Origin: Escherichia phage KarlSchell_Bas89
Sequence record: PQ850613.1
Length of the DNA: 64,000 nucleotides
Direction: 5' to 3' (one strand)
The position numbers and the translations under genes are program-made. Under the pieces are notes generated by a model. The model did not search any database and was not told the origin of the DNA. It was given only the letters and a program-made list of their open reading frames with translations. Positions 1 through 64,000 of the stretch are shown piece by piece. Positions within the stretch are counted from its first letter, which is position 1; every line of letters starts with the position of its first letter.

Positions 1-517
1 AGAAGGAGGGTACGTAAATACTATTAGTGGAGATTGGTATGACGGAAGTTGGTTACTTGGCGGAGTCAGAAGTGGCTCGACATTATTGGACCGTGCACAG
101 CTTAACGTTTTTGATGGCGTTGGTAGTAGCGCCTCGTTTGCATTTAATTCTAATGGTGTAGCAAGCTGCCAAGAATGGAGAAGCACATCTGATGAACGGG
201 TTAAAAGCAATATTGAGCGTATCAGTGATCCACTCTCCAAGATGAGAAACATCAAGGGGGTTAAATGGGTTCTGGAAACCAATGGATCAATAGGATACGG
301 ATTCATCGCACAGGACGTAGAGAAGGATTTTCCTGAAGCTGTATCAGAAACAAAGGCTTCACCAGTCACTCTGCGAGATGGGTCAGTGTTGGATAACGTA
401 AAGTCAGTTAACACCTCGGGCGTTGCTGCTGCGTTGCACCATGAAGCTATTCTTGAACTTATGAAGCAGGTTGAAGACCTCAAGAAAGAGGTGTCAGAGC
501 TTAAGTCTAGTAAGTAA
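1..517 (+). CDS. tail fibre/tailspike protein, C-terminal fragment (gene begins upstream of window) with peptidase S74-type intramolecular chaperone domain
   Basis: Frame is open from position 2 with no stop before the listed TTG; motifs SDERVKSNIE and GFIAQDVEKDFPEAV match the self-cleaving C-terminal chaperone domain of phage fibres; coiled-coil-like tail KQVEDLKKEVSELK. Confidence 0.7.
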   Translation, partial: EGGYVNTISGDWYDGSWLLGGVRSGSTLLDRAQLNVFDGVGSSASFAFNSNGVASCQEWRSTSDERVKSNIERISDPLSKMRNIKGVKWVLETNGSIGYGFIAQDVEKDFPEAVSETKASPVTLRDGSVLDNVKSVNTSGVAAALHHEAILELMKQVEDLKKEVSELKSSK

Positions 518-10111: not shown

Positions 10112-11776
10112 ATGCAACAAACTTCATATGCGTACCTCCGTAGTCGAGACCCACGCAATCAGATTTATGGTGTAAATCAGGGAGGGGTGCAAGCCTCTCC
10201 TTATATTCCTCGTCCTGCTTACCCACAAGCAGATATGTCTGTTTATACCCGTCCTAGTATGGCTCCTGCTGGATTAGCTGGGCTGGTTTCTCAGGCTAAT
10301 GAAGATCAAGAAGCAATGCTTGGTCCAAACAAACAAGTTGTTCAGGGTGCTAACATCCAACCTGATATCCCCAACGAAACTCCTGTAGCAGCCTCTCAGT
10401 CAGCTTCTCCGTTTGTTAACGATGAAAGCATGGTTGCTGCTGGCCTTTCTCCAGAAACTGCTTCTCAAGAGTTCTCAGACCCTCTACCGGTAAGTGCTCC
10501 TCCTAAACCGTTGGAACCTACTGATACAGAGTTTACTCAAGACCAAGTTAAACAGGCACAACAGGTTATGTCAACCCTTTCTTCCGGTTTACCTGAAGCT
10601 GAAGGTATGGCAGGTGCTTCTCGTAGCGCTGACCAAGAACGTGTTAACAAAGATTTAATGGAAGTGGCTAAGGCTAAGAACCCGATGGAAGAGTGGGGTA
10701 AGTTACAGAAACAACCTTTCTATCAGAACTCTAGCTTCTATACAGGTTTGATGGGTGTAGGTCTTTCTATTATGTCAGGTAAGTCTCCTATTGAAGCTTT
10801 CCAGATTGGCTCTGGTATGGCTGCACAGGATGAAACTAAGAATCAGCTTGAAGCTAACCGTGAATCTCTGATTGAACAGGGTTATTCTCCAGACTCAGTT
10901 GCTGCTGCAATTGCTACTGGTGATCCTTCTGCTCTGAAGATGCGTCAGATTAGCCCTCAAGAGAAACTTGCTTTGTCTGCTATTGAAGATGAAAGAGCTA
11001 ACCGTGAATGGGACAGACGCCAACAGATTAGTGAACAGTCTATGAGTCGTAGGATGGATGCAACTCGCCAAGCTGCTGAACAACGTGTACAAGAACAGTT
11101 TGCTCGTCAGAAAGAGTTGATTGGGTATCGTGATCAAGTAAAAGCTGATCGTGCTGAGAAAGCTGCTCAGAGTTTTAATTTTAATCCGAAAGAAGTTCGT
11201 CTTGCTCAGAACACAGCTGAAGGTACAGTTGCTAAGCAGTGGGCAGAGAAAGGTGGTCTGTTTAACCAGTCTCATAAAGACTTGGATTTGGCAGATCAGG
11301 CAGTTAAAGATAAAGACTATCAGACAGCTCGTTCTGCTTACATGCAGGCTATCATGAACTCCGCAAGGGCTGAAATCGGTGCTACTCGTTCTCTGACCGA
11401 AGAAGACTTACGTCACTTTGCAGAAGACCCATCAATCTTTGTTAAGGTTGGTAATACTTGGTCTCTGAAAGGTGGGTATCGTCCTACTGATGCTGCTCTT
11501 GCTTATGCTCGTAAACAGGCAACCGTTGGTGCTACTTCAGCGATGAAGGGTGTTAAGGATGCTAAGAAAGCAACCATCGAAGCTTACGTTGGTTCTGGTA
11601 TGGATAAGAAACGTGCTACTGCACTTGTTAACCGTGCTATACCTTCTGGTGGTTTCTATGACCCATTAGGTACATTTGAATCACAAGCTGAGGAAGAGGT
11701 TGGTGGTGCTGCTACTAATCCACGTCTGAATGGTGCTCTTTCAGCTTCTGAAGACACTAGCTGGTTTACTCAATAA
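10112..11776 (+). CDS. hypothetical virion (internal/ejection?) protein
   Basis: ATG at 10112 with AGGAG upstream (track start 10049 probably too early); 555 aa. Confidence 0.5.
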   Translation: MQQTSYAYLRSRDPRNQIYGVNQGGVQASPYIPRPAYPQADMSVYTRPSMAPAGLAGLVSQANEDQEAMLGPNKQVVQGANIQPDIPNETPVAASQSASPFVNDESMVAAGLSPETASQEFSDPLPVSAPPKPLEPTDTEFTQDQVKQAQQVMSTLSSGLPEAEGMAGASRSADQERVNKDLMEVAKAKNPMEEWGKLQKQPFYQNSSFYTGLMGVGLSIMSGKSPIEAFQIGSGMAAQDETKNQLEANRESLIEQGYSPDSVAAAIATGDPSALKMRQISPQEKLALSAIEDERANREWDRRQQISEQSMSRRMDATRQAAEQRVQEQFARQKELIGYRDQVKADRAEKAAQSFNFNPKEVRLAQNTAEGTVAKQWAEKGGLFNQSHKDLDLADQAVKDKDYQTARSAYMQAIMNSARAEIGATRSLTEEDLRHFAEDPSIFVKVGNTWSLKGGYRPTDAALAYARKQATVGATSAMKGVKDAKKATIEAYVGSGMDKKRATALVNRAIPSGGFYDPLGTFESQAEEEVGGAATNPRLNGALSASEDTSWFTQ

Positions 11777-11796
11777 GACCTAAGTCCTGCCTTCTA

Positions 11797-11805
11797 TAAT
11801 GTATA
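11797..11805 (+). promoter_or_regulatory. TAATGTATA promoter-like element
   Basis: Exact 9-mer 37 nt upstream of the 11842 start codon; same 9-mer and spacing upstream of a minus-strand gene at 29201. Confidence 0.45.
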
Positions 11806-11841: not shown

Positions 11842-14800
11842 ATGGCTAACATTAAATCTTGGGAAGAAGCATCGAAAAGCCCCAAGTATATGAATGCAAC
11901 TCCTGAGCAACAGGCTCAGTTGAGAGAGCAATACAAAGCGGCAGGTGGTACAATCCCTGAAGATAAGCCAGTACAACCACAACAAGAAGAGCGTGGCTTA
12001 GTTGGTGAGTTCGCTCAGGGCGTATCTAATGCTATCGAATCTGGTGGAGCTAATATTGCAGCTAGTACCGCTCGTGGTTTAGGTGGTCTGGTTGAAATGG
12101 GTGAGAACGTTCTCGGTTCCCAAACAAGCTATGGTAAAAGAATTCAAGATAACGCAAAACAAGTATTAGAAAAGCGTATGGCTGGTATCGAGGATGGCTT
12201 TGGTAAGACTGCTGGGCAGTATGCTGGAGTGGCTGCTGATATCGGTTTGACAGTTGCTAACCCTGCTTTGGCTGCTGGTGTTATTGCGGGACGTGAAGCA
12301 GGGCGTGCTTATGCAGACCAGACTCCAGAAGAGGGAGAAGATAAGTCAGTGTTAGATGCTGCTCTTGTTGGTGGTGCTAACTTTGCAGCTCAGAAGATTC
12401 TTCCGGGTTTCACAGGAACAGCTGAGTCTACTTTAGGTCGTATTGGTCAGAGTGCTGCTTCTAACGCAGTGGCTGGTGCTAAGGGTGGTGCTCTCGTAGG
12501 TGCTGCTGAAGCTCAGAATAAGTATGGTGATGACACTACACTTGCCAATGTACTAGAAGGTGCAATTGATGAAGGTGTTGCTGGTGCTGCTTACGGCGGT
12601 GCTATTGGTGGTGTTCATGGTGCGATCAGTCGTCCTAGTCCTCAAGTATTTGATAAGACTCCTGAGAACGTTAAGACTGATATCTCCGCTGAAGATGAAG
12701 CGATTCGTAATGCTAAAAATGCTGATGAACTCCGTGAAGCTTATTCTCAAGCTGATACTGCTAACACAGCTTCCGCTCTTAACCTGCTAGACCAGAATGA
12801 TTTCCGTATTACAGATGCCGTGGCTATGGATTCTCCTGCTGCTCAACGTATCCTTAATACAGACCAGACTCGTGCTGAGAAAGCTGCTTCCTCTCTTACA
12901 GAGCGTTCTAACATCCCAGGTCTCAATCCTCTTGCTTCTCCAAGTAAGGTTAAGGGTAAAGCTTTTGCAGATAACGAACATAACCAGAAGCAAGCTGTAG
13001 CAATGAAAGATGCAATGGCTGACTACACTAAAGACAACACCAAGGCTCTTAATGATGTTCTTGATAATCTAGACAGAGAGTTGAATGACCTTCGTGTCCG
13101 TGGTGACTTTACTGGTAGCGCTATTGACATTAAGAATCAGACTCGTAATGATCGTGATTTCATTGATGCTTACAAGAACTTCTACACTGAAGCAAACAGA
13201 TTCAAAGCTCGTGATGGTGAAGACTTTAATAACTTTGTAGAGAAAGCTACCGAGCTACAGAAACTTGCTGATAATGTTTCTCCAGAGATGAAGAAAGCTA
13301 TTGGTGGTTTGAAGAAACTGAAAGGTATGCCTGAAGGTTTCAACCCTATCCAAGATGCCTTTACTCTGAATAACACAGCTAAATTAATGAGTAACCAAGA
13401 CCGTGGTTGGACAACCCTGACAGATGATGGTTTCCGTGAAGCCTCTTCTCCAAGTTTTGTTATGAACACCCTTGGTGCTGCTAAGTATGCTCTGAACCGC
13501 TTCTCTTCAGAGAGGGCTAGGTCTCAACGTGCTCGACAGCAGGATTCAAACAGTGAAGCAATTCGCTCTTTGGCTCGTGGTGATTTAGAGGTTGCTCGTG
13601 CTCGAAGTGCAGCAGCAAAAGCACGCGAAGAAATGGAAGCCGAACCGGTTGTTGATGACGTTCAATTTAAGACGCAAGCTGATGACCAAAATCAGGCTGG
13701 TTCTGAACCCTCTTCTCCAGCTACTGTGACGGAAGATTTCTCTCCTTCTCCAGCTCCTTTAACTGCTCGTGATTTGGTTGCTCAAAGACGTGCTATTCGA
13801 CAGGCGGAACAACGCCGTGCAGAGGAGGAAGCACAAGCTGCTCAGAATGCTCCAGTTGAACCAGAAGCTCCAGCAGAAACTTTGCCTACGCGTAACCCTC
13901 TTGAGGAACGTAGAGTGCAAGAAGCTGAGATGGAACAACAGCGTGCAGCAGAAGAGGCTGCTAAAGCTCCTGAGACGTCCGTAGAAGAGCCTACAGCTAA
14001 AGCTGAGCCGTTACCTGCTCGTGCTCCTAAAGCTCCTAAGGAAGCTGCTCCTGAGGTTAAACCGGCTACTGGTGTAGAACGTCTTGCTGCTATGTCAACA
14101 GCTGCTCGTCAGGCTACTAAAAACCGTGCTGAACGTTTTGCTCGTTCTTTGTATACTGCTGGTGCTAAAGCCAAAGCTACTGCGGAAAACTTCTTGGCTT
14201 ATAAAGGAGACCCGAAAGAGCTGATGCGTCGTATCCGTCAGGAAGACCAAGCGAACAATGCTGCTCGTCATGAAGAGATGGCTCGTAACCAACTAGCTTC
14301 TCAGCAAGGTATTGCAGCTGCTAAATCTAACCGAGTTCGTTCTGCATTCTCCGATTGGGTTAAAGAGCGTGGATTACCTTCTGAAATCGCCTCTAAAGCC
14401 CTACGTGCTGAAGAACGTGGATTGGATGGTAACGTATCAAGCCTAGACTCTTTGAAGCGCAGAGCTGAGCGTATGTATCAGAAAGAGCGTGATGATGAGT
14501 TTGATAGGCTGTATCGTGAAGCTCTGGAAGAAAACAAAGCTTTTGATAAGAAAGATGCACCTAAGCTGAAAGATCAGAAGGCTGAGTTCCAGTCAGAGAT
14601 TGATTCTCTACTTGAGAACGAACCTCTCCGTCCTGCTCAGAAAGATGCAATGCGTAAGATGATGAGTGATTTTGTTGATGGGAAGTTTAAAGCGGCTGAG
14701 AAAGCTGGAAGGGAAGAAGCTTTAGAGGTTGGTCAAATGAAGGATTTGTGGGATGGGTTTATTAATACCTACAATCGTGAAGTTGGCATGTTCAATAAAG

Positions 14801-16263
14801 CTAACAAGAACTCTCAGTATGAGGCAGCAGCTAAACATCTACAGGCTCGTGAAGAGCGTCTTACCTCTTTACGTAACAGAGCAGAAGCTCGTGCTCAAGC
14901 GAAAGCTACAGCAGAAGCTGAACGTCAGTCACTCGAAGCTATTGCTGGTCAGAAGACTGAGATAGAGAAGATGTTTGATGAGTTACCTAAACCTGTCCGC
15001 GAGGCTCAGGAAAGCCGTACTCTGAAACAGCTTGCAGCTCACCACGATAAGAACTCCCCTGTTCCTCCAGAACGTTTCCGTAGTATTATCGAACGTATCC
15101 ATAACGCAGAGTCCGACTACCTTGATCGTAAGCGTCGTCTCACTGATGCAGAGGAAGATGCTCGTGAAGCTAAGTGGAACAAGATGTATGAACAAGCAGA
15201 GGAGATGAACCGTAAATTCGATATAGATGCTCGCGTGTCCCGTGATAAGAGCCTCAAAGAAGCTCAGGAGCGACAGAATGATCTCATGGCAGTACAACGC
15301 CAACGTGATGACATTCACAGCCGTCTGGTGCGTTCTATCGAAGATAAGGGCATCCCTAAAGCTGATGCTGAAGCATTTGCTGGTTCTTATATGGATAACC
15401 GTTATGCTCTTCTTGAAAAACCTATGACCCCTACCGAGCATCAGAATGCTCGTGCACGTATTGAGTCCGATGTAGAGAAGTTTGCTAAGAAGTATGAAAG
15501 CTTGTCTCCTATCGAGAAAGACGTGGTTAAGATTACTGGTGATGTGGAAGGTAAACTGGATGGGTTGGATGCTGAGACTATGAAGGCAGTTGAGGAAGCT
15601 AGGAAGGTTGACTCTGATATTAAGAAACTTCAGGATGAAGAGTTGGAAATGGAGAAAGTCCGTTCAGCTTTACCTGATGATGAAAAGTCTCAGGCAAATT
15701 CCGACATTCTGGAAAGCATTAAAAAGCAAGAAGATGAGTTTGCAGGAAAGGTTGAGAAGGCATTCTTGGAAGGCAAGGACTTGAAGGAATTGGCTAGTGT
15801 TGCAGAGGTTCTGGATAGGGTTCATGGTGCTGACAAGGCTGGGAACAACCGTAGATTTGTTCGTGCTCTACAGACTGCTGCTGACAACAAGAATAAGTAT
15901 GGTGATAATCCGGTAGCTTGGTTTAGTGCTGATGATTACTCTGCTATTGCTAAACTTGGTGCTGCATCAGCGGGCGGTAACAAATCGAGAGCGTTGGAGA
16001 AGATCTTTGGTTCTACAGCAGATCAAGCTAAGGCTAAGCTTTTGGGGAGAGATGATGTAGCGAAGATTAGACGTGTGATTGAAGCGAATCCTGAAGTCAA
16101 GATTCCTTCTTACAAGACTACTACTCGTCAAGAGTATTTACAGTTCTTGGAGAAGTATAATGATGAAGGAGTGTTGAAAGTCAAACGTGGTTCTCTGTCT
16201 GACAGATTAGAAAGGAATAAGCGTCAAGCTAAACTCCGTGTTAGAGTTCGCTCGAAAGAGTAA
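11842..16263 (+). CDS. large (1473 aa) coiled-coil-rich virion protein (internal core/ejection-type)
   Basis: Long ORF with RBS AAGGAG; A/E/K/R-rich helical composition; last gene of the plus-strand structural block. Confidence 0.55.
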   Translation: MANIKSWEEASKSPKYMNATPEQQAQLREQYKAAGGTIPEDKPVQPQQEERGLVGEFAQGVSNAIESGGANIAASTARGLGGLVEMGENVLGSQTSYGKRIQDNAKQVLEKRMAGIEDGFGKTAGQYAGVAADIGLTVANPALAAGVIAGREAGRAYADQTPEEGEDKSVLDAALVGGANFAAQKILPGFTGTAESTLGRIGQSAASNAVAGAKGGALVGAAEAQNKYGDDTTLANVLEGAIDEGVAGAAYGGAIGGVHGAISRPSPQVFDKTPENVKTDISAEDEAIRNAKNADELREAYSQADTANTASALNLLDQNDFRITDAVAMDSPAAQRILNTDQTRAEKAASSLTERSNIPGLNPLASPSKVKGKAFADNEHNQKQAVAMKDAMADYTKDNTKALNDVLDNLDRELNDLRVRGDFTGSAIDIKNQTRNDRDFIDAYKNFYTEANRFKARDGEDFNNFVEKATELQKLADNVSPEMKKAIGGLKKLKGMPEGFNPIQDAFTLNNTAKLMSNQDRGWTTLTDDGFREASSPSFVMNTLGAAKYALNRFSSERARSQRARQQDSNSEAIRSLARGDLEVARARSAAAKAREEMEAEPVVDDVQFKTQADDQNQAGSEPSSPATVTEDFSPSPAPLTARDLVAQRRAIRQAEQRRAEEEAQAAQNAPVEPEAPAETLPTRNPLEERRVQEAEMEQQRAAEEAAKAPETSVEEPTAKAEPLPARAPKAPKEAAPEVKPATGVERLAAMSTAARQATKNRAERFARSLYTAGAKAKATAENFLAYKGDPKELMRRIRQEDQANNAARHEEMARNQLASQQGIAAAKSNRVRSAFSDWVKERGLPSEIASKALRAEERGLDGNVSSLDSLKRRAERMYQKERDDEFDRLYREALEENKAFDKKDAPKLKDQKAEFQSEIDSLLENEPLRPAQKDAMRKMMSDFVDGKFKAAEKAGREEALEVGQMKDLWDGFINTYNREVGMFNKANKNSQYEAAAKHLQAREERLTSLRNRAEARAQAKATAEAERQSLEAIAGQKTEIEKMFDELPKPVREAQESRTLKQLAAHHDKNSPVPPERFRSIIERIHNAESDYLDRKRRLTDAEEDAREAKWNKMYEQAEEMNRKFDIDARVSRDKSLKEAQERQNDLMAVQRQRDDIHSRLVRSIEDKGIPKADAEAFAGSYMDNRYALLEKPMTPTEHQNARARIESDVEKFAKKYESLSPIEKDVVKITGDVEGKLDGLDAETMKAVEEARKVDSDIKKLQDEELEMEKVRSALPDDEKSQANSDILESIKKQEDEFAGKVEKAFLEGKDLKELASVAEVLDRVHGADKAGNNRRFVRALQTAADNKNKYGDNPVAWFSADDYSAIAKLGAASAGGNKSRALEKIFGSTADQAKAKLLGRDDVAKIRRVIEANPEVKIPSYKTTTRQEYLQFLEKYNDEGVLKVKRGSLSDRLERNKRQAKLRVRVRSKE

Positions 16264-18502: not shown

Positions 18503-19079
18503 TAATCCAATCCAAATAATATCGAGCTTCCGAAATAGTCCGATTATTATATAATGTGCAAGTTTCTAACTGATTTCCTTCAATATAATTCCTAGAATCT
18601 CCAGAAAAATCACATCCCTCTCTTTTGACTTGAACTACTACTACATTGAAAGACTTCTCTAACTCTCTTACCTCTGCTTCAAACCCACCGTCCGTAAACA
18701 GGATAACATCATTATGATTCCTCCCTTCTGCATTGATGCTGTTTACTGCTTGGATTCCCATATAGTTCTCACCAAACATAGGTTTTAAGTAATCTTCACT
18801 TGTGGAAATCATTAAATCCCTAACAGATCTCCCTCCCCATTCAGGTCTAGCCTTTTCTTTCCAGTCTCGGTCTTTATACAACTCCAGAAAATCCTCCAAC
18901 TGCAAACCTAATGCTGCGGAGGCTACTTTGTACATAGGCTCTTTAAATGATTTAGCATAACGGGAATAAGACGCAATGTGGGATTTTAGTAACCACTCCT
19001 CAGCTATCGTGTCTTTACCACAACCCGGAGGCCCATTGAGAATTACTACTAAAGGTTTAGACTTATCAGTCATTTCCAA
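18465..19079 (-). CDS. P-loop nucleotide kinase (probable dNMP kinase)
   Basis: Walker A ILNGPPGCGKDT near N-terminus, about 200 aa. Confidence 0.5.
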   Translation of the reverse strand: MEMTDKSKPLVVILNGPPGCGKDTIAEEWLLKSHIASYSRYAKSFKEPMYKVASAALGLQLEDFLELYKDRDWKEKARPEWGGRSVRDLMISTSEDYLKPMFGENYMGIQAVNSINAEGRNHNDVILFTDGGFEAEVRELEKSFNVVVVQVKREGCDFSGDSRNYIEGNQLETCTLYNNRTISEARYYLDWIIAQTRDDVYGRC

Positions 19080-19462
19080 TCTCCAATGATTTCCATATCT
19101 AGTTTGTCTCCTTTCTTTGTAAGGAGTATTGCTGGTTTATCTTTACTTTTCATGTACTCAAACATGTGCAGAGAGCCTCTTGACTCTCCATCCCAGAAGA
19201 CTATTGCTGAGTCAGCATATTCTCCCATGTCTACGTTTCTAAGGATACCAGCTTTCTTTCCTAAGGTTGTCCAAGACGGGATAAACCTTTTAATACCAAG
19301 GCCGTTATGCTTAGCAATAACCTCTCCATGAGAGTCTGGCCCTTTTGCTCCCCCTGATACAACTTCAGTGAAGAGCTTAGGTATACCTTTCGGGAGTAAA
19401 TCCCACATCTGAATAAAAGAAGGCCAGTCAATAGACCGGCTTCCTGCTATAATCACTTTCAT
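19070..19462 (-). CDS. SLOG/DUF2493-like Rossmann-fold protein
   Basis: KVIIAGSR ... GGAKGPD ... AGILRN ... VFWDGESRGS pattern. Confidence 0.45.
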   Translation of the reverse strand: MKVIIAGSRSIDWPSFIQMWDLLPKGIPKLFTEVVSGGAKGPDSHGEVIAKHNGLGIKRFIPSWTTLGKKAGILRNVDMGEYADSAIVFWDGESRGSLHMFEYMKSKDKPAILLTKKGDKLDMEIIGDWK

Positions 19463-19463
19463 A

Positions 19464-20105
19464 TTAAGACCCTTGGAATTCTTCCTTGTCGAAGTGCTTC
19501 TCTACCACATACTCATACAGATCTTTATACTCTGCATAACGACGATAGAATGTCCCATGTGAGATGCCTAATTCTTTCTGAATGGAATCGTGAGGGATAC
19601 CTAAGAAGAGCATTGAGAACATGCTTGCAAGCTTCTGTGTATCCATTGTATCACTCAAATCTTGGAAGAAGTAGAAGATACGAGACTCCATGAAAGGGTC
19701 CCCAACTGAGTCATGCTTATTAACTGCATATTCCAGAGGGCCTTCTGAGTAAATGTCAGGGTTGTTAAACATATCTGCTTCTGGAATAGCATAGATACGT
19801 CGATCACCAACTGTCTGTCGATTGGAACGGATAGACCAGATGATATTCTTCACACGATAAGTCATGTGCTCAATCTCTACTTCACCTTCTAGTAGAAGTT
19901 CTTCTTGCTTGGAGTAGATGAAACGCCAAACATTAAGCAACACCTCTTGAGCTACATCCTCTGCTTCATGATAGTCACGAATGTCGTACATAAAGAATTT
20001 GTGAACCACTTTCCAGTTCACCTTATAGAACTCATCGAAGGTTGGGAAGTATTTGATTGGAATACCGTGAATACGATACCGAGTAGGTGTTGTTTTCTTA
20101 GCCAC
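19464..20105 (-). CDS. phage-encoded sigma factor (ECF-like)
   Basis: Region-2-like [17 protein letters not shown] and region-4-like [28 protein letters not shown]. Confidence 0.7.
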
Positions 20106-20135
20106 AAGTTATCCTTAACTTTGTCGGTTTTAATT

Positions 20136-20342
20136 TTATACACTGATCAAGTAAATAGCTGTTTCAGGGTTTGGTGTGTTTTGTTGTGGTGTGCCGGAGA
20201 TACGAATCCACTCATCATTTTCTGGTTCGTAATACAACCAAGCATCTGTGAATTTGAAAGTTCTTCCAAACACTTTATTATCATGTTCCCAAATTACGTG
20301 AACATTCCTAGTATCAGGTAGAACTGATTGCGCTCTAATCAT
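20136..20342 (-). CDS. hypothetical protein
   Basis: ORF only. Confidence 0.3.
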   Translation of the reverse strand: MIRAQSVLPDTRNVHVIWEHDNKVFGRTFKFTDAWLYYEPENDEWIRISGTPQQNTPNPETAIYLISV

Positions 20343-20599: not shown

Positions 20600-20858
20600 A
20601 GTGCATCTCTTTGTAAACTGTCTCAGTGTTCTTCTTCCAGTCTGATAGACCATTGAGAACTCTCATAGCAACATCATCAGCTGCTTTGTTTCTCTCTATC
20701 TCTAATTCTTGCTGATGTTTCTCTTTGTCCAGATTATTACTATCTGTTTGATATTCGTTAAACTTCATACCACCAAAGAATACAAGAGCTGAAAAGATGA
20801 TGAACCCTAAGTTATCACTTAACGTGTTTTGCATATTATCTCCAACGAAAAAAGCCAC
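20484..20858 (-). CDS. candidate i-spanin (N-terminal TM helix plus coiled coil)
   Basis: LGFIIFSALVFFGG hydrophobic helix then charged helical region. Confidence 0.35.
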   Translation of the reverse strand: MAFFVGDNMQNTLSDNLGFIIFSALVFFGGMKFNEYQTDSNNLDKEKHQQELEIERNKAADDVAMRVLNGLSDWKKNTETVYKEMHYEKTKPVFYNVCASDEYVKLFNERQQQAVNAITNKSKN

Positions 20859-20870
20859 CCGAAGGTGGCT
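20846..20870 (-). terminator. rho-independent terminator (minus strand)
   Basis: AGCCACC-CGAA-GGTGGCT hairpin with A run on plus side (T run on minus), downstream of SSB gene. Confidence 0.65.
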
Positions 20871-20892: not shown

Positions 20893-21633
20893 TTAGAATG
20901 GAGATTCGTCTTCTTCAAAAGTAGACTCAGGCTCACGATCAATAGTAGGGATAGAAGCAACCGGCTCTTTCTGCTCGTTCTCAGAAGCCTTAGTGACTTC
21001 ACGACCAGCGAGAGGAATGTTCTTAGCGTCATTAGCTTGGGTAAGCAGGTTACGCTGGAATGGGAAGATTACCTGATAAGCAGCTACGTTATCATCTGTT
21101 TCAGCATACGGTTCGAAGAAGACCAGAGGACTGCGAGCAGCAGCAACAGCTTCACGATACTTGGTAGGAATCGGAGTAATCTGTTTGATAGAGTTCTTAA
21201 CTTCACCAGCTTTGTTGGTGTAAGAGTTGATTAGAACGTTTACAGGCTGACCTAACAGCATTTCTTTAAACCAAGCCAAATCACCTTTCAGTGCTTGGAT
21301 GCTAGGGTCAACCATCTTAATTAGGTTGAGAATACCAGAGTTCTTAGCTCGTGGGTTTACATCGAAGCTCTTAAACTGACATGCAGGGCGCGGGTCAAGA
21401 GCATTGCCTTCAGAGTCCTTACCGGTTGCATCAACACCAATCAGCTCAAACGCCAAGTCCATACGGAAAGCTGGGTTCTTAGGAGTAACTGCTTTAGTCT
21501 TAGGGTCAACCCAAGGGTCACGATTGTGAACACCAAGACCAACAACACGAACGATACGAGCTTCGTACTCACCATCAGGGATTACGTCGTAGTTGGATTT
21601 ACGGGAAACGGACATAGTTGGGATAGAAGACAT
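20893..21633 (-). CDS. single-stranded DNA-binding protein (T7 gp2.5-like)
   Basis: Acidic C-terminal tail ending EEDESPF; position in replication module. Confidence 0.55.
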   Translation of the reverse strand: MSSIPTMSVSRKSNYDVIPDGEYEARIVRVVGLGVHNRDPWVDPKTKAVTPKNPAFRMDLAFELIGVDATGKDSEGNALDPRPACQFKSFDVNPRAKNSGILNLIKMVDPSIQALKGDLAWFKEMLLGQPVNVLINSYTNKAGEVKNSIKQITPIPTKYREAVAAARSPLVFFEPYAETDDNVAAYQVIFPFQRNLLTQANDAKNIPLAGREVTKASENEQKEPVASIPTIDREPESTFEEDESPF

Positions 21634-21680: not shown

Positions 21681-21699
21681 TTATGTATAGTATACATTA
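21681..21699. promoter_or_regulatory. near-palindromic TTATGTATA-g-TATACATTA element (back-to-back promoter-like 9-mers)
   Basis: Minus-strand TAATGTATA about 58 nt upstream of SSB start; one-mismatch copy on plus strand. Confidence 0.4.
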
Positions 21700-21762
21700 C
21701 ACCTATACCGATAAGGGTGCTATATAGTATAAGCAGTAGTGGTAGTAGATATTGACTACTAG

Positions 21763-21771
21763 TAATGTATA
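21763..21771 (+). promoter_or_regulatory. TAATGTATA promoter-like element facing an ORF-less region
   Basis: Exact 9-mer; downstream 280 nt has hairpins but no plus-strand ORF. Confidence 0.35.
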
Positions 21772-22048
21772 TATTGTATAGATGATAATTCTATTGCAGG
21801 CTTGTATATTGGGCAATTCTCAGAATCCCTTGCAAGTACCGAAGGGCAGGAGACACCTGCGAGATAAAAATAGAGAATTAAGGAATCCTTGATTTAGGTT
21901 GTAGGGACTCCTAGGGACTTTGATTCTCTATTTAAAAGAAATATTAATTACTTACTACCTAAATAGTTAACTAACTTACTTAAAACCTTTTCAATAAGAA
22001 TTGCTAAAAGGATAATTCCTAAGAAAGCTAATAAGAGAAAGGCATAAG

Positions 22049-24511: not shown

Positions 24512-24858
24512 TTATTATCTCTCATAAATTCGGGTTACTGTACCACCCGCAGCTTCTACTTGAGCTACGAATGAATCACGCTCTTCATCTGTATAAACCA
24601 GCTCATTCAGGAAGATCCCTTCAGAGTCTTGGTACAAGATGTTCCACTTAGGCAGGGGCTTACGAATCAAGTCCATCACTCTTTATCCTCCCGTTCTTTC
24701 CACAGTTGGGCTAGTTCTAAATAATACTCAGCTTCGTCAGTGCGTCCTTGTTCTTTACAGATGCTATGCTGACGGAAGCACCAATCTGAAGGTTGCTCTT
24801 CCACTTCCTTGTCTCCTTGAGAAGTAATCAATAAGACTACTTCATTTGTTTTTCCAAT

Positions 24859-25066: not shown

Positions 25067-25552
25067 TCAATGTGTGTGATTCCAATTTAATCCAATCTGA
25101 CAGTCAGATGCCAGAGGGCATTCCATCTTGAGATACTCACCAGCTTTCTTAACACAAAGCTCTGTAAGCTCTTTTAGCTTTTGTGCATCATTACGGTGAA
25201 CAGAGAACTGCCCTTCATCGTGCATGTCAATAACCTTCGCACAACGAACACCATCACGCTCAATCCACTTGTTAAGGAAAAGCATGGCATACTTCATAAC
25301 AATCGCACCAGCACTCTGTAAGAGAGTATTCAGTGCTTTATGAACCATTACCTTGCCTGTTGCATCACGTCTCATTGTAATACGACGACCATCAACACCC
25401 AAGATATAACCTTGAGCTGCTTTCTCTGTCATACGCTCAATAAGAATTGCAATACAAGGATTCTCTGCCAAGAAACGTGCTCTCATTACTGCACCTTCTT
25501 CAGAGCCTCCACCAACGATAGAACCGAGCTTAGCATCACCTGCCCCATCAAT
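25067..25552 (-). CDS. DNA polymerase (family A, T7 gp5-like), 3' segment (after the inserted HNH element)
   Basis: Frame open upstream of the listed Met gives IDGAGDAKLGSIVGG...; contains ALNTLLQSAGA and motif C HDE; protein ends in H like T7 gp5 (from memory). Confidence 0.7.
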   Translation of the reverse strand: MDGAGDAKLGSIVGGGSEEGAVMRARFLAENPCIAILIERMTEKAAQGYILGVDGRRITMRRDATGKVMVHKALNTLLQSAGAIVMKYAMLFLNKWIERDGVRCAKVIDMHDEGQFSVHRNDAQKLKELTELCVKKAGEYLKMECPLASDCQIGLNWNHTH

Positions 25553-26332
25553 AGTTCAAGCAAAGGCGCTACTCTTTGCTCCGTTCTCTTATGAACTGCT
25601 TACAGTTTCCTGTAAGATCGGACTATATCTTCATCTCCACCTTTACGTGCTGAGAGACAGGCGCTTCCGTAACACTTGTTACGTACTCCCTTCCGGGATA
25701 GTCTCTGAACTTTCCGTGACACAAACTTTTCTACATAGATCAATGAACTGAGCATCAGATAGTTTACCTTTTGCATTATTCACTTCCCAAGTTACCCATT
25801 GGACATTTCCAATTTCGTAACCTTTCGAATTATCCTTCCTATCTAAAGAAAGTTTATTCGGGTGTCCGCTGACGAAAGATAGTGAATCCCCTGTCAAGGC
25901 ACATTTGTAGTTTTGCTGAGAAAGAAGCTCGAATAAATAGTCTTGAGTAATCGTGAACTCAAAACCCCTTTCTCTAGCTCTGTGATGGGAGTTGTGATAT
26001 CTCTCACGAACCGCTCCACCCCAAGTTTGTCGATATTGTCCCATAGCAGCAGATGCTGCACTTCTGTTTCGACGTCTCCACTCATTTGAAGCAATGCGAG
26101 CACAATTTTTACATTGACATTGCTTTCCATCTTTACTCTTAGATGAATTATGGAAACTGTCGAGTGGCTTTTCTTCGCCACAGCTTGAACATATCTTTGT
26201 CATAAACACCTCCTTGTGTTGATGTTTATGTCACGGCTTAGCTGCTGATTGGCATATCTTTCGACTTAGCTTTCCAGCAATTCACCTGTTTTGCTTCTGC
26301 ACATTTCTATGCAGTGAACCAATTATTTAGTT
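25553..26332 (-). mobile_element. candidate group I intron carrying an HNH endonuclease ORF, inserted in polymerase motif B
   Basis: Upstream piece stops right after TFIYAF, downstream frame resumes at IDGAGD; about 780 nt between, containing an ORF with its own RBS; boundaries approximate. Confidence 0.45.
25679..26209 (-). CDS. HNH homing endonuclease (insertion-encoded)
   Basis: SLDRKDNSKGYEIGNVQWVTWEVN; own RBS AAGGAGG. Confidence 0.8.
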   Translation of the reverse strand: MFMTKICSSCGEEKPLDSFHNSSKSKDGKQCQCKNCARIASNEWRRRNRSAASAAMGQYRQTWGGAVRERYHNSHHRARERGFEFTITQDYLFELLSQQNYKCALTGDSLSFVSGHPNKLSLDRKDNSKGYEIGNVQWVTWEVNNAKGKLSDAQFIDLCRKVCVTESSETIPEGST

Positions 26333-28398: not shown

Positions 28399-28893
28399 TT
28401 AACTAGAGCTTAAAGCGTGTCTGATAGCTGTATGGCTTACACCAAACATCCTACCTAAAGCTCTTGTTCCAAACTGAGCAGAACCTTTGACATAAAGGTT
28501 TTTAACTCTTTTAACATCCTCTGTATTAAGTTTCATTCTAGGGTTTATGTTCCTGTGATGGCCTACATTAAGACCTGTATCAAAAGAATGTTGAACATTC
28601 TCAGAAGCATCTGCCCACTCTAGATTCTCAATACGATTATCACTTTTTACACCATTCTTATGATTTATCTGAGGTTTGTTTTCAGGGTTAGGTATGAAAA
28701 AGGTTGCTATCAACCTATGAGCTTTCCATGACCTCCCTTCAAAATAAACCCTAATATAACCTTTAGTGTCTAAGTGGCCAGCCTCTTTACCCGGATGGCT
28801 CTTATTCCACTTAAAACCTTTTGAAGATGACTCTGTGTAAAACAGACGACCAGAATCTCTATCATAAGAGAGGTAGTCGGATATAGGAATCAC
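28399..28893 (-). CDS. HNH homing endonuclease
   Basis: AHRLIATFFIPNPENKPQINHKNGVKSDNRIENLEWADASEN. Confidence 0.8.
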   Translation of the reverse strand: MIPISDYLSYDRDSGRLFYTESSSKGFKWNKSHPGKEAGHLDTKGYIRVYFEGRSWKAHRLIATFFIPNPENKPQINHKNGVKSDNRIENLEWADASENVQHSFDTGLNVGHHRNINPRMKLNTEDVKRVKNLYVKGSAQFGTRALGRMFGVSHTAIRHALSSS

Positions 28894-29201
28894 TGACTCA
28901 GCGCCCCCTTCCTTCCACCATTTGATTTTCCAGCTCGATCTCCACTTTTGCCGCCAGCTGAACGATTGCTGCTGACTGTCTCAACACGTAAATTGCTTGA
29001 CGCATTAGAGCCTCCTGATTTAATGGCTCGTTTGTGTCCGACATCTTTACCTTTGAGTGCAGATTTTCCAACGCGTTTCTCAACGATGCGACGTGCACGG
29101 TGGCGCTGAGCATCTCCGCTCTTACTTCCAACTCCCGTTTCACCTCTTGCGATGGCTGTACGTCTTTCTTGTGCATAATCTCTTTTAGCCTTATCAGTCA
29201 T
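28890..29201 (-). CDS. basic K/R/G/S-rich small protein (possible nucleic-acid-binding)
   Basis: Good RBS AAGGAG 8 nt upstream; TAATGTATA 37 nt upstream; a second ORF (28898-29176) is open in another frame. Confidence 0.4.
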   Translation of the reverse strand: MTDKAKRDYAQERRTAIARGETGVGSKSGDAQRHRARRIVEKRVGKSALKGKDVGHKRAIKSGGSNASSNLRVETVSSNRSAGGKSGDRAGKSNGGRKGALSQ

Positions 29202-29237: not shown

Positions 29238-29246
29238 TATACATTA
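29238..29246 (-). promoter_or_regulatory. TAATGTATA promoter-like element (minus strand)
   Basis: Exact 9-mer on minus strand 37 nt upstream of 29201 start. Confidence 0.45.
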
Positions 29247-32849: not shown

Positions 32850-32921
32850 TTCACTCTCTCCTGTTTAATACAATATTCTTATACTGTATATACATTTGAG
32901 AGTGATCATATCTACTACCAA

Positions 32922-34608: not shown

Positions 34609-35889
34609 TTAATCTGCGATACTATCGCTTTCATCAACCCAGACTGTACCATTAACCTGTCTTAGACGACGAGCTGACGCTTCGTTAATAGAGTTAACCC
34701 CTGCTGTGCGAGGGTTTGTGTACCAAGGTCGAGCTATGGTGCCCTCTCGAATCACTTGGTTCGTTTCGACATGCCATCTGTTTGATACCATGTTGGCTTC
34801 AAAGTTACCACCCGCTCCACCACTGATAGGCACAGCTTGAGCTGGTTGGTTTACTCGGTTAGTTCCTGCCCCAAAGGATGCTGCAAATTCAGACATACGT
34901 GCATCAAATGCAGAACGAACACGCTGAGTAGGTGATATATCATTTCGTGTATCTACTGCACGAGGCATAGCCCAAGTATCATCTGTTGAGATATCAGGGG
35001 TAGGCTCTTGCTCTAGAGGTTGAAGATTAGCTGTCCATTGACTGTTCAGTATACGATAGAAATCTGCACCATAACCACTTCGGATAACATCTTCTCTGAT
35101 ACCAAAAAAGCGACTAATATCTCCACCGATTCGGGCCAACTTATCGTTGTATGTAGATACAGATACCCCACTTTCTGTTACTAAGTCAGAAACACGACTT
35201 GTTGTAAGTGGTGAGTTATTCCAACAATAATAGTCAGTAATGTGGCCGTCATACCCAAAGTATGCAACCTCTGCATCAGGCCATTTCTTGTGGACATATG
35301 CCACTTCGCGAGTAGAACAAACAGGGATTGCGCCTGTTTCAGTCATTGCATAGAAGCCGTCAGAAGAGAACCAAAGTGAGTCTAGTGCTAAGAATCCACG
35401 ACACACACTTGGGAAAGTAGCAGCCAGCGCCCCAAGTGAGGTGGGTTCGTTGAACATTAACTGAACCTTTGCACCCTGATAATCAATCTCTAGGATATCT
35501 ACAAAATTCAAAGAAGACCCAGGGGCATATTGACTATTACTTCGTCCAATATCCTGCTCAACAAGAAGAGATCTTGTTTCAACACCATGAGCCTCTGCCC
35601 ACTCTTTGAAATCTTCAAGGAACAAGCGAGCCTTAGCTCGCCACATCGACCGATCAGTTACGGATTGTCTCGGCAATCCGCCCTCTGTAGTGATGAGGAA
35701 GATATCAATGTCATGGGGCTCACGCGTCTGGAAGATTGCATCCCTAACAGCACCACCTGCAATGATAGGGTACACACCATCAGGGATTAAACGGTTTGCA
35801 ATCAACTCGTTAATTAACGTAAGACCAGACATAAGCTGCGGACTGTCATCAATCCGACGACGAATTAGTGCATTAGGGATATTATACAT
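34609..35889 (-). CDS. nucleotidyltransferase with Pol-beta/CCA-adding-type head motif
   Basis: IIAGGAVRDAIFQTREPHDIDIF matches GGxVRD...DxD; start ATG directly abuts the stop of the exonuclease gene. Confidence 0.45.
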   Translation of the reverse strand: MYNIPNALIRRRIDDSPQLMSGLTLINELIANRLIPDGVYPIIAGGAVRDAIFQTREPHDIDIFLITTEGGLPRQSVTDRSMWRAKARLFLEDFKEWAEAHGVETRSLLVEQDIGRSNSQYAPGSSLNFVDILEIDYQGAKVQLMFNEPTSLGALAATFPSVCRGFLALDSLWFSSDGFYAMTETGAIPVCSTREVAYVHKKWPDAEVAYFGYDGHITDYYCWNNSPLTTSRVSDLVTESGVSVSTYNDKLARIGGDISRFFGIREDVIRSGYGADFYRILNSQWTANLQPLEQEPTPDISTDDTWAMPRAVDTRNDISPTQRVRSAFDARMSEFAASFGAGTNRVNQPAQAVPISGGAGGNFEANMVSNRWHVETNQVIREGTIARPWYTNPRTAGVNSINEASARRLRQVNGTVWVDESDSIAD

Positions 35890-36438: not shown

Positions 36439-38222
36439 GGGCTTTTCTCTCCATCTTGAGCAAGAAGTGATGCTGCATCCTCTCCATTTGTCAGCGAGAA
36501 TGGATTTTCTTCATCAATTTCATGTTCTTCACGCTCAAGCAGTCGTCCCGTCTCTCCTACATATTTCGTATAGCACACCCCTGTTTGTCCATAGTTACGC
36601 TCTTTGAGGAGTCGTATAATGGAGAGGTTCTTAGCCAGACCATCTGCTTGTTTGTCACGTTCAAAACCGATGATACATTGACACCAACGCATAAGAGAAC
36701 GAGAGCCAGTAAACTGTACCTCTCGAACCTGACCACCTTCTTCATGAGGTGCACCACCTGCCGGAGCATTGAGGTGAGATAATACGAATGCTGTGAAGTT
36801 TAATTCTTGACACATACCAGCAAGCTCGGAAGCAATCTTACTGATTTCAGTGTTAATCTCTGAAGGTGTTAAATGAGACACCAGAGCGGTAATATTATCA
36901 AGGATGATAAACTTACACTGGTTTTCAACAACCCAGAAACGGATACACTGTTTAATGTCGGCCCATTCATTCTGACCAAAGTTATCATAGAGGAAGAATT
37001 TATCTGCATATCGAAGAGCTTCGTTACGCAATGTATCTTCATCATACTCAACATCAGGTCTGTGGAAAGGGATAGATGCTGACTTACCTGCAATGTTCTT
37101 AACGGACATTCCGACCTTCTCTTCCAAGAAGAATCCACCACCATTAAAACCATGCTCAAGACAAAGCCAAGCAACCAGTTCATGTGCAATCAGTGTTTTA
37201 CCAGAGCCTACACCGCCACCAATTGCTACCATCTCTCCCCAACGAATACCGTAGGTCATCTCATTAAGAGTCTTCCACGGATATGGGATACCCCACTCTG
37301 CTTTCTTCAGAGCATCATCTAAGCAATCAAAAACAGTTACAGCACCAGCTGGAGATTCACGCTTCGCTGAATATTTAAGAATGTTAAACAACTCCTGACC
37401 ACGACCAGAGAGAAGCATATCATTCGCATCTTTAAGTTCTTTCTCAACACCATTGTACTGGAAAGAACCTTTAGGAATACGAGCAAACTTCACATGTGGG
37501 AACAGAGCACGCCCTTTGGTAAGAGCAATCTCACCAGCATCATCGTTGTCCATACAGAGGACAACCTCTTCAAAACCATTCAAGAACTCACGGTTGCGAG
37601 ATAGAACGGAAGAGATTGACCCTGCACCGAATGGTAAAGAGACACACGCTGGTTTAATGTTTGTTGCATTTGTAAAAGCTGTAAGAACGTGGAAGCCAGA
37701 CATACAAGACAAGGGGTCTTCAAAGATGAAGAGCTTCTTATTGTACACATCTCCACGTTTAGCCTGTGCCATACCAAACAAATCAGCTTCTTTCACACTA
37801 CCGATGTAATAAAACTTTTTACTATCGAGCAGTTTAACCTCATAACCGACAATGTTTCCATCACGTTCACGAGGGAAGAAGTAACTATCCGGTGTCTGAC
37901 CATCAGTTTGACTGAGACCTATACGACACTCAAAACGCTCTGATACAGCTTTAGGGATTAATCGACGAGTGAGTTCTCCTTGAGGTAACTCCAAGCAATC
38001 ATCCAAGACTTCTCGAAGTTCTTCAGGGGACAGCTCTTTCTTTTCATTTGGTGTAGGTGTCGTGCCTTTCTCAAAGACTTCGTAATTACCACACCGGTTG
38101 CAACTTCCAAAAGTTTCTTCAGTTTCTTCGTTATGAAACAGAATCATATGATTGCCGGTCTTGTCCCTACCATGTGACTGGCATTCTTTACAAGCGCAAT
38201 CTCCAATAATCTTTTTAGACAT
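36432..38222 (-). CDS. DNA primase/helicase (T7 gp4-like)
   Basis: Zinc ribbon CACKEC...[23 protein letters not shown], Walker [20 protein letters not shown]; start at internal Met 38222 with GGAG upstream. Confidence 0.85.
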
Positions 38223-39443: not shown

Positions 39444-39626
39444 CTATGCTGTGAAGTTTTTGATTACACCGCAAATAACATCTGTTTCAAACGTACCCAC
39501 CAGAACATCGTCTCGGTAGAAGTTAATCGCCTTACCATCTCGGTTAAAGTGATCTGCTTCAATGAGCATAGATTGTACCTGACCATCTGGAGTGGAGGTT
39601 CGAAAGATGACGTTATACTGACTCAT
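39444..39626 (-). CDS. hypothetical small protein
   Basis: ORF only. Confidence 0.25.
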   Translation of the reverse strand: MSQYNVIFRTSTPDGQVQSMLIEADHFNRDGKAINFYRDDVLVGTFETDVICGVIKNFTA

Positions 39627-39865
39627 AAAGAAGTTACTCCCTTATCTTCTTGGGCGATAGAGATGATACGACTCACACACTGCATTGAGTACTCATCACC
39701 ACGCTTTAGGAACGTTACGATAGCAGAGAATTGATTACCAATCATCCGCTCATTTGTAATACCGAACTCTTTGCAGAGTTCTTTCAGTTTGCTACGAGAA
39801 CCAATAATCAGAGGTTCTTTTTCTTCAGTCATTCCACGACTAATCAAATCTTCAATAGACAACAT
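39623..39865 (-). CDS. hypothetical small protein
   Basis: ORF only. Confidence 0.3.
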   Translation of the reverse strand: MLSIEDLISRGMTEEKEPLIIGSRSKLKELCKEFGITNERMIGNQFSAIVTFLKRGDEYSMQCVSRIISIAQEDKGVTSL

Positions 39866-62016: not shown

Positions 62017-62150
62017 AAAGGAGGAAGCGAGGGAATAGCCATAATTTAAATGAGGACTCCCCCTTTTTAGGAAACGCGCTCGGAGGGGCTAGGTCCACTC
62101 GGTCAAATCAGAATTTTAAACTGTTATATATAAGGTTGAGAGAGGAATTA

Positions 62151-62312
62151 ATGAATCTAATTAAAGTGTTTAGACGGATGAAATGTAAACACAATTACTA
62201 CCTTCTTCGTAAAGCTTACGGGGATGAAAGAGTACACGGGCTATACCTATCAACATGGAAATGTAAGGATTGTGGTAAGCTACGGTTTAGTGAATGGATA
62301 GACAGACCGTAA
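62151..62312 (+). CDS. small zinc-ribbon protein (53 aa, below track cutoff)
   Basis: ATG with GAGAGAGG upstream; CKH...CKDCG cysteine pairs. Confidence 0.35.
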   Translation: MNLIKVFRRMKCKHNYYLLRKAYGDERVHGLYLSTWKCKDCGKLRFSEWIDRP

Positions 62313-62593
62313 TGGAATGGATATTCTGGTTAGTAATAATCTTCTGTTTGTTCATCTGCTTCTCTATAGCAAGATGTATCAAATATGACTAAGCCTTAAC
62401 ATGACATGGCCTTTATGTGAGGTCCCCTTTATATCAGAGGATATAGTAAATATGACAGAAGATGAATACGGTAGCTTCTCTGAAGAAGACTACGAAATAG
62501 AATACAGATATACTCACGGGGTGGCCTTAATATGAGTGAGTCATCAAAGATGACGACCCCTTTATGTCTTCCCTTTTTCAGAGGAGAATTAAT

Positions 62594-62851
62594 ATGGATT
62601 TTATCTTAGACTTTTTATCAGAGGTGATTCCTCGGTTTCGCACTGAAAGATGTGCATTCACATTTGAAGATATGGGTGACGGGGAGTTAATCCTCACTTG
62701 TATTGGTCGCTTAGTAGACCTAGATGATGACGAAGACTTCGATGCCACAATGGATGTAAGCTCCTTGAGTTGGCTTTACATGAGAGCTTTCCTGTCATTC
62801 AAAACAAACACATTTACTGATTATAGAAAAGAGGACACTGATAATGAATAA
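62594..62851 (+). CDS. hypothetical acidic protein
   Basis: Internal ATG with AGAGGAG upstream. Confidence 0.35.
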   Translation: MDFILDFLSEVIPRFRTERCAFTFEDMGDGELILTCIGRLVDLDDDEDFDATMDVSSLSWLYMRAFLSFKTNTFTDYRKEDTDNE

Positions 62852-63362
62852 CACAACAATCATCGCAGCACAGGCTATGGACTTAAACGATTATAACTCT
62901 GCCCTGTGTGGCTCAGGTACTACAACCAAGCTATTCAATGGAGAAGTGGTTACAATGAATGGCCTTTGCTCTCCGGATCTTTATAGTGGCTCTATCCTCA
63001 AGCCAGAACACAAGAACCCTTCTACATTGGAAGTTATTCAGTATGAATCTACCAAACACAAAAACTTGCCGGAACATGCACGACAGATGATCGAATGGAT
63101 TGAAGAAGCAGAATATGAAATGTTGTATAACTATATGAACTCAAAAGATGAGTGGACTCGATTGGTAAGCATTAACGAAGATGGCACAGAAAAGATTACG
63201 TGGATTCATAAAGACGAAGTGGTTAACGACGTGGTAGAAGATTACGAAAAATTTTTGGTCGGAGGGTTGGCTGAAGTTGAGAAGGGGTATGCAGTTCCTG
63301 TAGAATATGAAGGTGAACTTGTTGCTCTGAAGAAGATGTTTAACCTAAGCATCGATTGCTAA
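62844..63362 (+). CDS. hypothetical protein
   Basis: 172-aa ORF followed by a terminator. Confidence 0.45.
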   Translation: MNNTTIIAAQAMDLNDYNSALCGSGTTTKLFNGEVVTMNGLCSPDLYSGSILKPEHKNPSTLEVIQYESTKHKNLPEHARQMIEWIEEAEYEMLYNYMNSKDEWTRLVSINEDGTEKITWIHKDEVVNDVVEDYEKFLVGGLAEVEKGYAVPVEYEGELVALKKMFNLSIDC

Positions 63363-63371
63363 TTTTGGTAT

Positions 63372-63396
63372 GCCTCTCGTAGTGGGAGGCTTTTTG
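63372..63396 (+). terminator. rho-independent terminator
   Basis: GCCTCTC-GTAGT-GGGAGGC hairpin followed by TTTTTG. Confidence 0.6.
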
Positions 63397-63426
63397 TTAT
63401 AGTGGTAATGTAAGAAGGAGAGAAAC

Positions 63427-63986: not shown

Positions 63987-64000
63987 ATTTTGGAGGAAGT

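Follow-up and report, generated by a model that had tools for sequence, protein, structure and literature searches.

We find that the gene at positions 19464 to 20105 of a 64-kb stretch of Escherichia phage KarlSchell_Bas89 (PQ850613.1; the whole stretch is hereafter called the window) almost certainly encodes a phage sigma factor of the phiEco32 type, an ortholog of phiEco32 gp36, in a Nieuwekanaalvirus-like E. coli podophage. The window is phiEco32-like podophage DNA (Gordonclarkvirinae) throughout. At the DNA level, it is 95 to 97% identical to Escherichia phages EP335 and KBNP1711 (genus Nieuwekanaalvirus), and approximately 80 to 83% identical to phiEco32, SU10, NJ01, and some 90 further records. 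An initial annotation had placed an extracytoplasmic function (ECF)–like sigma factor here and proposed that, with no phage RNA polymerase (RNAP) in the window, the phage sigma redirects the host enzyme, with the recurring 9-mer TAATGTATA as its candidate recognition element. The open reading frame (ORF) is real and has exactly the bounds given. It lies on the minus strand, which the initial annotation had left unstated.

Aligned over its full length (212 amino acids, aa) with a single one-residue indel, the protein shares 83% identity with phiEco32 gp36; identity to the products of EP335 and KBNP1711 is 99.5 and 99.1%, respectively. A sequence search of the PDB returned chain F of entry 9M7Y, which is phiEco32 gp36 (E = 4.5e-121, residues 1 to 212), and the whole protein matches PHROG 1740, 'RNA polymerase sigma factor' (E = 8.7e-46). 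Homologs of the window protein were found by tblastn in 98 phiEco32-like records and in none other, within a phage-genome collection (bacterial genomes and metagenomes lay outside the search).

The initial annotation had suggested a profile search against sigma-70 regions 2 and 4. This gave a mixed result, with region 2 below threshold, region 4 without a match, and a strong hit to the phage-specific PHROG 1740. The Pfam profile Sigma70_r2 (PF04542) aligned with residues 34 to 62 only (E = 0.0031, 17.7 bits, below the cutoff of 24). Within this match lie residues 47 to 61, which had been correctly singled out as a region 2–like segment. The region 4 profiles Sigma70_r4 and r4_2 (PF04545/PF08281) gave no match in Pfam even at E values up to 10. 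The proposed C-terminal helix-turn-helix (HTH) of region 4 type agrees with the sigma4-like domain seen in the gp36 structure but not with any region 4 profile, the nearest Pfam match being a weak one to HTH_23 (residues 169 to 193, E = 0.13). The NCBIfam profile TIGR02937 (sigma70-ECF) aligned over residues 23 to 191 and profile positions 3 to 155 of 165 (E = 6.7e-6, 25.8 bits against a cutoff of 42.9). Because all of these matches are subthreshold, Pfam and NCBIfam alone leave an ambiguous call, and it was PHROGs and the PDB sequence search that settled the identity of the protein.

These profile results bear on the possibility that the phage acquired an ordinary ECF (group IV) sigma factor of bacterial type, which would act on a bipartite ECF-type promoter under anti-sigma control. 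The TIGR02937 alignment is consistent with such an origin, as are the two-domain architecture without regions 1.1 and 3 and the use of the name 'ECF sigma factor' in several records and a PDB entry. As a description, 'ECF-like' therefore fits the architecture and the depositors' naming, but the curated ECF and sigma-70 thresholds are not reached. We consider acquisition from a bacterial ECF group very unlikely, given the shortfall of every sigma-70/ECF profile, the lack of a region 4 match, and the confinement of homologs, within the phage-genome collection, to the 98 phiEco32-like records. Furthermore, the cognate promoter is ruled by a single extended −10–like element, AATGTA at −14 to −9, and the partner protein gp79 activates gp36 and is not an anti-sigma factor for it. 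Bacterial ECF factors do share with gp36 the order of sigma2, linker, and sigma4 and a weak full-length profile similarity. However, gp36 differs from them in a rotated first helix, a shortened helix 4 of the C-terminal domain, another orientation of the bound flap tip helix, and its promoter logic (PMC12276001). By every feature tested, the window protein belongs to the gp36 family and, by their thresholds, falls outside the curated sigma-70 and ECF families.

Entry 9M7Y (Xu et al. 2025, PMC12276001), solved by cryo–electron microscopy (cryo-EM), contains E. coli RNAP together with gp36, gp79, and promoter P68; a further gp36 structure entry is 9M7Z (Xu et al. 2025). The 9M7Y structure shows gp36 as a distant sigma-70–family protein that binds the host core RNAP, with a sigma2-like N-terminal and a sigma4-like C-terminal domain, both in canonical positions on the enzyme, albeit with deviations (PMC12276001). 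In gp36, residues D44, E47, E49, D50, and E54 bind the beta' clamp helices, and recognition and melting of the −10 region fall to E79, H80, Y83, R84, W90, S91, S94, and N95. The beta flap tip helix is held by M138, I142, F166, L167, and F204, and helix 1 of gp79 is received by F146, M164, L167, and I169. R187 contacts G at −37 and Y186 contacts the −34 base pair, and mutation of either kills activity (all PMC12276001). We found all 24 gp36 contact residues named in that work to be identical in the window protein. This includes five of five clamp-helix residues, eight of eight −10-reading residues, and the entire C-terminal set (flap tip helix, −35 DNA, and gp79 groove), for which the window numbering is higher by one. 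Identity to gp36 is 84% in the N-terminal and 91% in the C-terminal domain; divergence is greatest in the 34-residue linker, where the window protein has the one-residue insertion.

The same structure speaks against an HTH regulator that would bind TAATGTATA to repress or activate the sigma-70 holoenzyme and would not itself be a sigma factor. The weak HTH_23 match and the subthreshold region 2 match would suit a regulator of this kind, but in the cryo-EM model the 83%-identical ortholog takes the places of sigma2 and sigma4 on core RNAP, and its linker lies in the cleft. The ortholog also directs transcription with the core enzyme alone, as E. coli core and gp36 transcribe P26 and P68 in vitro without sigma-70 (PMC12276001), and its contact residues are all identical here. 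A role as a mere HTH regulator is already refuted for the phiEco32 ortholog, and we give it next to no chance for the window protein.

The phiEco32 gp36/gp79 system is reportedly the subject of Savalia 2008 and Pavlova 2012. Its second component is also encoded in the window. The gp79 ortholog matches chain G of 9M7Y (E = 4.2e-36) and 80 of 80 positions of PHROG 8339, and where it contacts RNAP and gp36, its residues are either unchanged or conservatively substituted (L6I, V10I, and W36F). In phiEco32, gp79 displaces sigma region 4 and thereby inhibits both the sigma-70 and the sigma-S holoenzyme, stabilizes the C-terminal domain of gp36, and stimulates gp36-dependent promoters three- to fourfold in vitro (PMC12276001).

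The 9-mer was rightly proposed as a recognition element, since TAATGTATA is the published gp36 consensus, tAATGTAtA (PMC8948821). It gives the correct core but an incomplete signal, as the structure shows that the −37 and −34 contacts are also required (PMC12276001). The gp36 holoenzyme uses six phiEco32 promoters with this consensus, P6, P13, P26, P40, P58, and P68 (PMC8948821; also PMC4281155 and PMC4331800), and transcription starts 6 to 8 bp downstream of it (PMC8948821). The same six were predicted for KBNP1711 as P4, P11, P24, P35, P56, and P70 (PMC8948821 supplement, Supplementary Table S3). In the window, TAATGTATA occurs in four exact copies against 0.56 expected, a count reached in none of 100 shuffles, and all four lie in gaps between ORFs. 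Copies with one mismatch show no excess (22 against 19.2 expected), so the signal rests in a few exact copies. We did not count one-mismatch copies as promoters, except at the syntenic P68-like and P6-like sites. One further copy of AAATGTATA, at 35883, overlaps a start codon and was taken as a chance copy.

Sites in the window match phiEco32 P26, P40, P58, and P68 in position and flanks, each 36 to 57 nucleotides (nt) before the corresponding start codon (Table 1). The flanks of the site at 11797 are nearly identical to those of P26, and those of the site at 32889 are close to P68, the promoter in 9M7Y. The site at 21691 is syntenic with phiEco32 P40 and KBNP1711 P35. With promoter numbering derived from the published position of AATGTA (−14 to −9), the 13-mer TGGTAGTAGATAT of the P68-like promoter ends 10 nt before the core and gives G at −37 and A at −34. 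The P6-like core, TAATGTAAG, keeps AATGTA intact and matches the consensus at seven of nine positions; it is the counterpart of phiEco32 P6 (TAATGTAgA), which likewise has a hairpin ahead of it, and of KBNP1711 P4, and is the weakest promoter assignment. The counterpart of P13 falls outside the window.

The element TAAGACCTA is common to the late promoters P26 and phiEco32 P13 at approximately −38 to −30 (in phiEco32, upstream of 26014 and 9101), and TGGTAGTAGATAT is common to P68 and a site on the opposite strand considered below. Upstream elements for the sigma C-terminal domain may come in these two classes, perhaps tied to late versus middle timing. The P40-like core falls within a perfect 15-nt palindrome, ATGTATA-G-TATACAT (21683 to 21697), which yields a one-mismatch copy, TTATGTATA, at 21681 on the other strand and which is conserved in phiEco32.

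The initial annotation was also correct that the window holds no recognizable phage RNAP. No RNAP domain was found by Pfam in the ten largest ORFs, where the only polymerase functions are those of DNA replication. ORFs of at least 800 aa number only two, an Ig-domain tail fiber and the gp26 homolog, for which we found no match in Pfam, NCBIfam, or the PDB, and which belongs to a PHROG of unknown function. Approximately 12.6 kb of the genome lie outside the window. Read from EP335, this part encodes terminase, portal, scaffold, capsid, an Ig-domain protein, and tail fibers. An RNAP gene elsewhere in the genome would have undermined the initial annotation, and none is annotated in the off-window part of EP335 or in related complete genomes.

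A further alternative is a phage RNAP that reads the 9-mer promoters, either cryptic (for example, the gp26 ortholog) or encoded off-window. The lack of any family match for the gp26 ortholog and the 12.6 kb off-window leave room for one, and RefSeq labels two phiEco32 proteins, phi32_50 (42 aa) and phi32_127 (87 aa), as 'RNA polymerase' and 'polymerase', respectively. These labels look like annotation artifacts, as both proteins are too small for polymerases, and the phi32_50 homolog in the window falls in a PHROG of unknown function (Table 1). The off-window counterpart in EP335 consists of packaging and virion genes only. Furthermore, E. coli core and gp36 are enough for P26 and P68 in vitro, and gp36 and gp79 are the only phage proteins found on RNAP isolated from cells infected with phiEco32. 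A phage RNAP at these promoters is thus exceedingly improbable. Redirection of the host enzyme by a phage sigma, as originally suggested, is the published mode of phiEco32, whose gp36 is the 83%-identical ortholog and for which core, gp36, and gp79 suffice. That phage has no RNAP of its own and uses host RNAP throughout, with sigma-70 for early genes and gp36 for middle and late genes (PMC8948821).

The mechanism that follows is shown for phiEco32, and we infer it by orthology for the phage sigma factor studied here. Early genes would be transcribed by the host sigma-70 holoenzyme. The sigma2-like N-terminal domain of the phage sigma (residues 1 to 103) would then dock on the beta' clamp helices via D44, E47, E49, D50, and E54, its linker would thread the active-site cleft, and its sigma4-like C-terminal domain would sit on the beta flap tip helix. 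The N-terminal domain would read AATGTA (−14 to −9) and open the DNA from −11, using E79, H80, Y83, R84, W90, S91, S94, and N95, while the C-terminal domain would touch −37 and −34 through Y187 and R188 (window numbering). The gp79 ortholog would bind outside the clamp and push host sigma region 4 from the RNA exit channel, which would turn off host and early transcription. It would also clamp the C-terminal domain of the phage sigma, stimulating middle and late promoters. Predicted targets are the TAATGTATA-type sites before the orthologs of genes 68, 58, and 40 (replication, nucleotide metabolism, and the operon toward the sigma gene) and the sites before the orthologs of genes 26 and 6 (virion genes). 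A phage RNAP would not be needed.

Several points weigh against this assignment. The function of the window protein is transferred from an 83%-identical ortholog. Generic sigma-70/ECF profiles match only under their curated thresholds, a region 4 profile match is absent, and the P6-like core departs from the consensus at two of nine positions. The family-less, 1473-aa gp26 ortholog leaves a cryptic polymerase formally possible when only the sequence is considered. The remaining points concern expression of the sigma gene itself. In phiEco32, a sigma-70–like promoter, TGGACA-18-TATAAT, lies directly upstream of gene 36, as was also remarked by the SU10 authors (PMC4281155), and this promoter is absent from the window. 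The macro-domain gene 37 of phiEco32 is absent as well; in place of both is a 68-aa ORF (PHROG 30479, function unknown). The region concerned is 20106 to 20342 (minus strand) in the window and 34811 to 35273 in phiEco32. With both gene 37 and the sigma-70–like promoter missing, this genus must have another arrangement for expressing its sigma gene early. Lastly, a terminator-like hairpin (20853 to 20870) separates the P40-like promoter from the sigma gene, so expression from that promoter would need read-through.

Table 1. Positions in the 64-kb window of the genes and of the predicted promoters, terminator, and transcript discussed in the text.
Feature	Position	Strand	Details
Upstream element TAAGACCTA of P26-like promoter	11774-11782	plus	about −38 to −30
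P26-like late promoter core TAATGTATA	11797-11805	plus	36 nt before ATG of 1473-aa gp26 ortholog
gp26 ortholog	11842-16263	plus	1473 aa; 81% identical to phiEco32 gp26; last virion-module gene
gp35 ortholog, gene directly 3' of sigma gene	19070-19462	minus	ATG 1 nt past sigma stop
Sigma factor gene, gp36 ortholog	19464-20105	minus	213 aa; GTG start; AAGGA ahead of start
Terminator-like hairpin AGCCACCTTCGGGTGGCT, then T6	20853-20870	minus	GC-rich; between gene 40 and genes toward sigma gene; consensus match only
P40-like middle promoter core TAATGTATA	21691-21699	minus	57 nt before gene 40 ortholog (20893-21633)
Seventh gp36-type promoter candidate	21740-21771	plus	13-mer TGGTAGTAGATAT, 10-nt spacer, TAATGTATA at 21763-21771
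Candidate noncoding transcript	21778-21935	plus	5' hairpin, variable middle in two versions, near-invariant 3' block
phi32_50 homolog	24679-24804	minus	PHROG 1312, unknown function
P58-like middle promoter core TAATGTATA	29238-29246	minus	36 nt before gene 58 ortholog (28890-29201)
P68-like middle promoter	32889-32920	minus	core AAATGTATA 32889-32897; 13-mer TGGTAGTAGATAT 32908-32920
gp79 ortholog	39623-39865	minus	80 aa; 72.5% identity (tblastn)
P6-like late promoter core TAATGTAAG	63406-63414	plus	behind hairpin and T-run; 12 nt before ATG at 63427

Among known systems, gp36/gp79 of phiEco32 is the same in its 83%-identical sigma factor, gene neighborhood, contact residues, gp79 partner, consensus tAATGTAtA, and the positions of P6, P26, P40, P58, and P68. 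It differs in genus (Kuravirus, versus Nieuwekanaalvirus here), in the possession of gene 37 and a sigma-70–like promoter before gene 36, and in the P6 core, which is TAATGTAAG in the window. The sigma factors of EP335 and KBNP1711 (NC_070979 and NC_023593) show essentially no difference from the window protein, which comes from the same species group. Salmonella phage 7-11 likewise has a syntenic phage sigma factor, gp47, in a phiEco32-like genome, and this protein uses host core RNAP and similar promoter positions. However, gp47 is only approximately 15% identical to gp36, recognizes bipartite promoters (GTAAtg-(16)-aCTA), and serves late genes only (PMC8948821). No gp79-dependent middle class is reported for phage 7-11 (Lavysh et al. 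2022, PMC8948821).

Phage T4 offers two partial parallels. Its late sigma factor gp55 redirects host core RNAP to a single short −10–like element, as gp36 does; unlike gp36, it has no sigma4-like domain and needs both gp33 and the sliding clamp. In the T4 AsiA/MotA system, as with gp79, a small cofactor disables the function of sigma-70 region 4 and activates phage promoters, but AsiA remodels host sigma-70, whereas gp36 replaces sigma-70 completely (PMC12276001).

The product of the gp35 ortholog carries the label 'GTP-binding domain' in relatives and has a subthreshold Pfam match to YspA/SLOG (E = 2.4e-4). Replication genes are loosely T7-like, comprising a gp4-like primase-helicase (DnaB_C and Toprim), a family A polymerase, and separate 3'-5' and 5'-3' exonucleases. 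The polymerase gene is split by an insert at 25547 to 26329 (minus strand) that phiEco32 lacks: residues 1 to 454 of phiEco32 gp53 correspond to 27691 to 26330, and residues 456 to 614 to 25546 to 25070. This insert of approximately 780 bp matches the Rfam family Intron_gpI (48.1 bits, E = 5.6e-11, just below the gathering score of 50) and contains a 176-aa ORF (25679 to 26209, minus strand) of endonuclease VII/HNH type (PHROG 1035, E = 4e-44). It is a group I intron carrying an endonuclease ORF. The endonuclease also matches PHROGs labeled 'Srd anti-sigma factor' (E = 2.5e-14) and 'decoy of host sigma70' (E = 4.5e-8), which most likely reflects a common endonuclease-like fold or loose family names, and not a role in transcription. 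A tRNA-Arg gene (anticodon TCT; 53287 to 53363, minus strand) has counterparts in phiEco32 and EP335. The last ~1.9 kb of the window (approximately 62140 to 64000) matches the left end of the EP335 record (ORFs 2 to 4, plus strand). The window therefore spans the ends of the deposited linear genome, through circular permutation or another choice of start.

The fourth exact copy of the 9-mer, at 21763, is a plus-strand site that stands back to back with the P40-like promoter and runs antisense to all neighboring genes. Only two copies of the exact 13-mer TGGTAGTAGATAT occur in the window, one at this site and one in the P68-like promoter, both 10 nt before the core. We aligned the intergenic region from 11 phages of three genera, picked across the whole range of similarity, for which genome-wide identity is only about 80% (phiEco32 counterpart of 21740 to 21935: 36681 to 36870). 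The 9-mer is invariant in all 11 phages, and so is the 13-mer save for one base in ES17. Downstream, a block of approximately 95 nt (21841 to 21932) is invariant at 87 of 92 positions. The site is not among the six gp36 promoters in the published table (PMC8948821), although it may have been tested earlier in the phiEco32 work. The pairwise motif scan of PMC4331800 covered the strand of the downstream gene only.

On these grounds, we tentatively suggest that the site at 21763 may be a seventh gp36-dependent promoter, missing from the published six, that drives a noncoding RNA of ~160 nt. Across the 11 phages, the 5' hairpin of this candidate RNA shows compensatory changes at two of its eight pairs (CG/AU/UA at one and UA to GC at the other); one more pair is G-C in some phages and G-U in others. 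The long 3' hairpin is invariant and is thus neutral as evidence; it has seven G-U pairs, which would be mismatches if read on the other strand. The folding energy is unremarkable (z = −1.9). No Rfam family was found in the region from 21.7 to 22.0 kb at gathering or relaxed thresholds, and blastn of the invariant block against E. coli genomes gave no match. An exact-pattern scan of IMG/VR returned five contigs, mostly known isolates, which added no diversity for covariation. A 36-aa plus-strand ORF (21782 to 21892) was rejected as coding, being without an ATG in NJ01 and phiEco32.

The putative RNA could be regulatory or antisense. A search for complementarity in trans within the window found 11-mers at chance level only. 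Alternatively, the transcript might serve to activate or prime replication, the analogy being the origins of T7 and T4 that contain promoters. GC skew tracks the orientation of the genes and provides no independent signal of an origin near 21.8 kb. Read on the minus strand, the invariant block is a hairpin followed by T5, so it may also, or instead, terminate transcripts from the P58-like promoter as a bidirectional terminator.

The sigma factor, its partner, the promoter motif, and the atomic mechanism are already published, and the nearest genomes already annotate the sigma factor. Our analysis indicates that a reading of the raw sequence alone was enough to find the sigma factor as well as its true promoter consensus. 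What is possibly new is confined to the candidate promoter on the opposite strand and the invariant block downstream of it. If transcribed, this region would extend a model system for phage takeover of transcription by a noncoding RNA or a transcription-activated origin.

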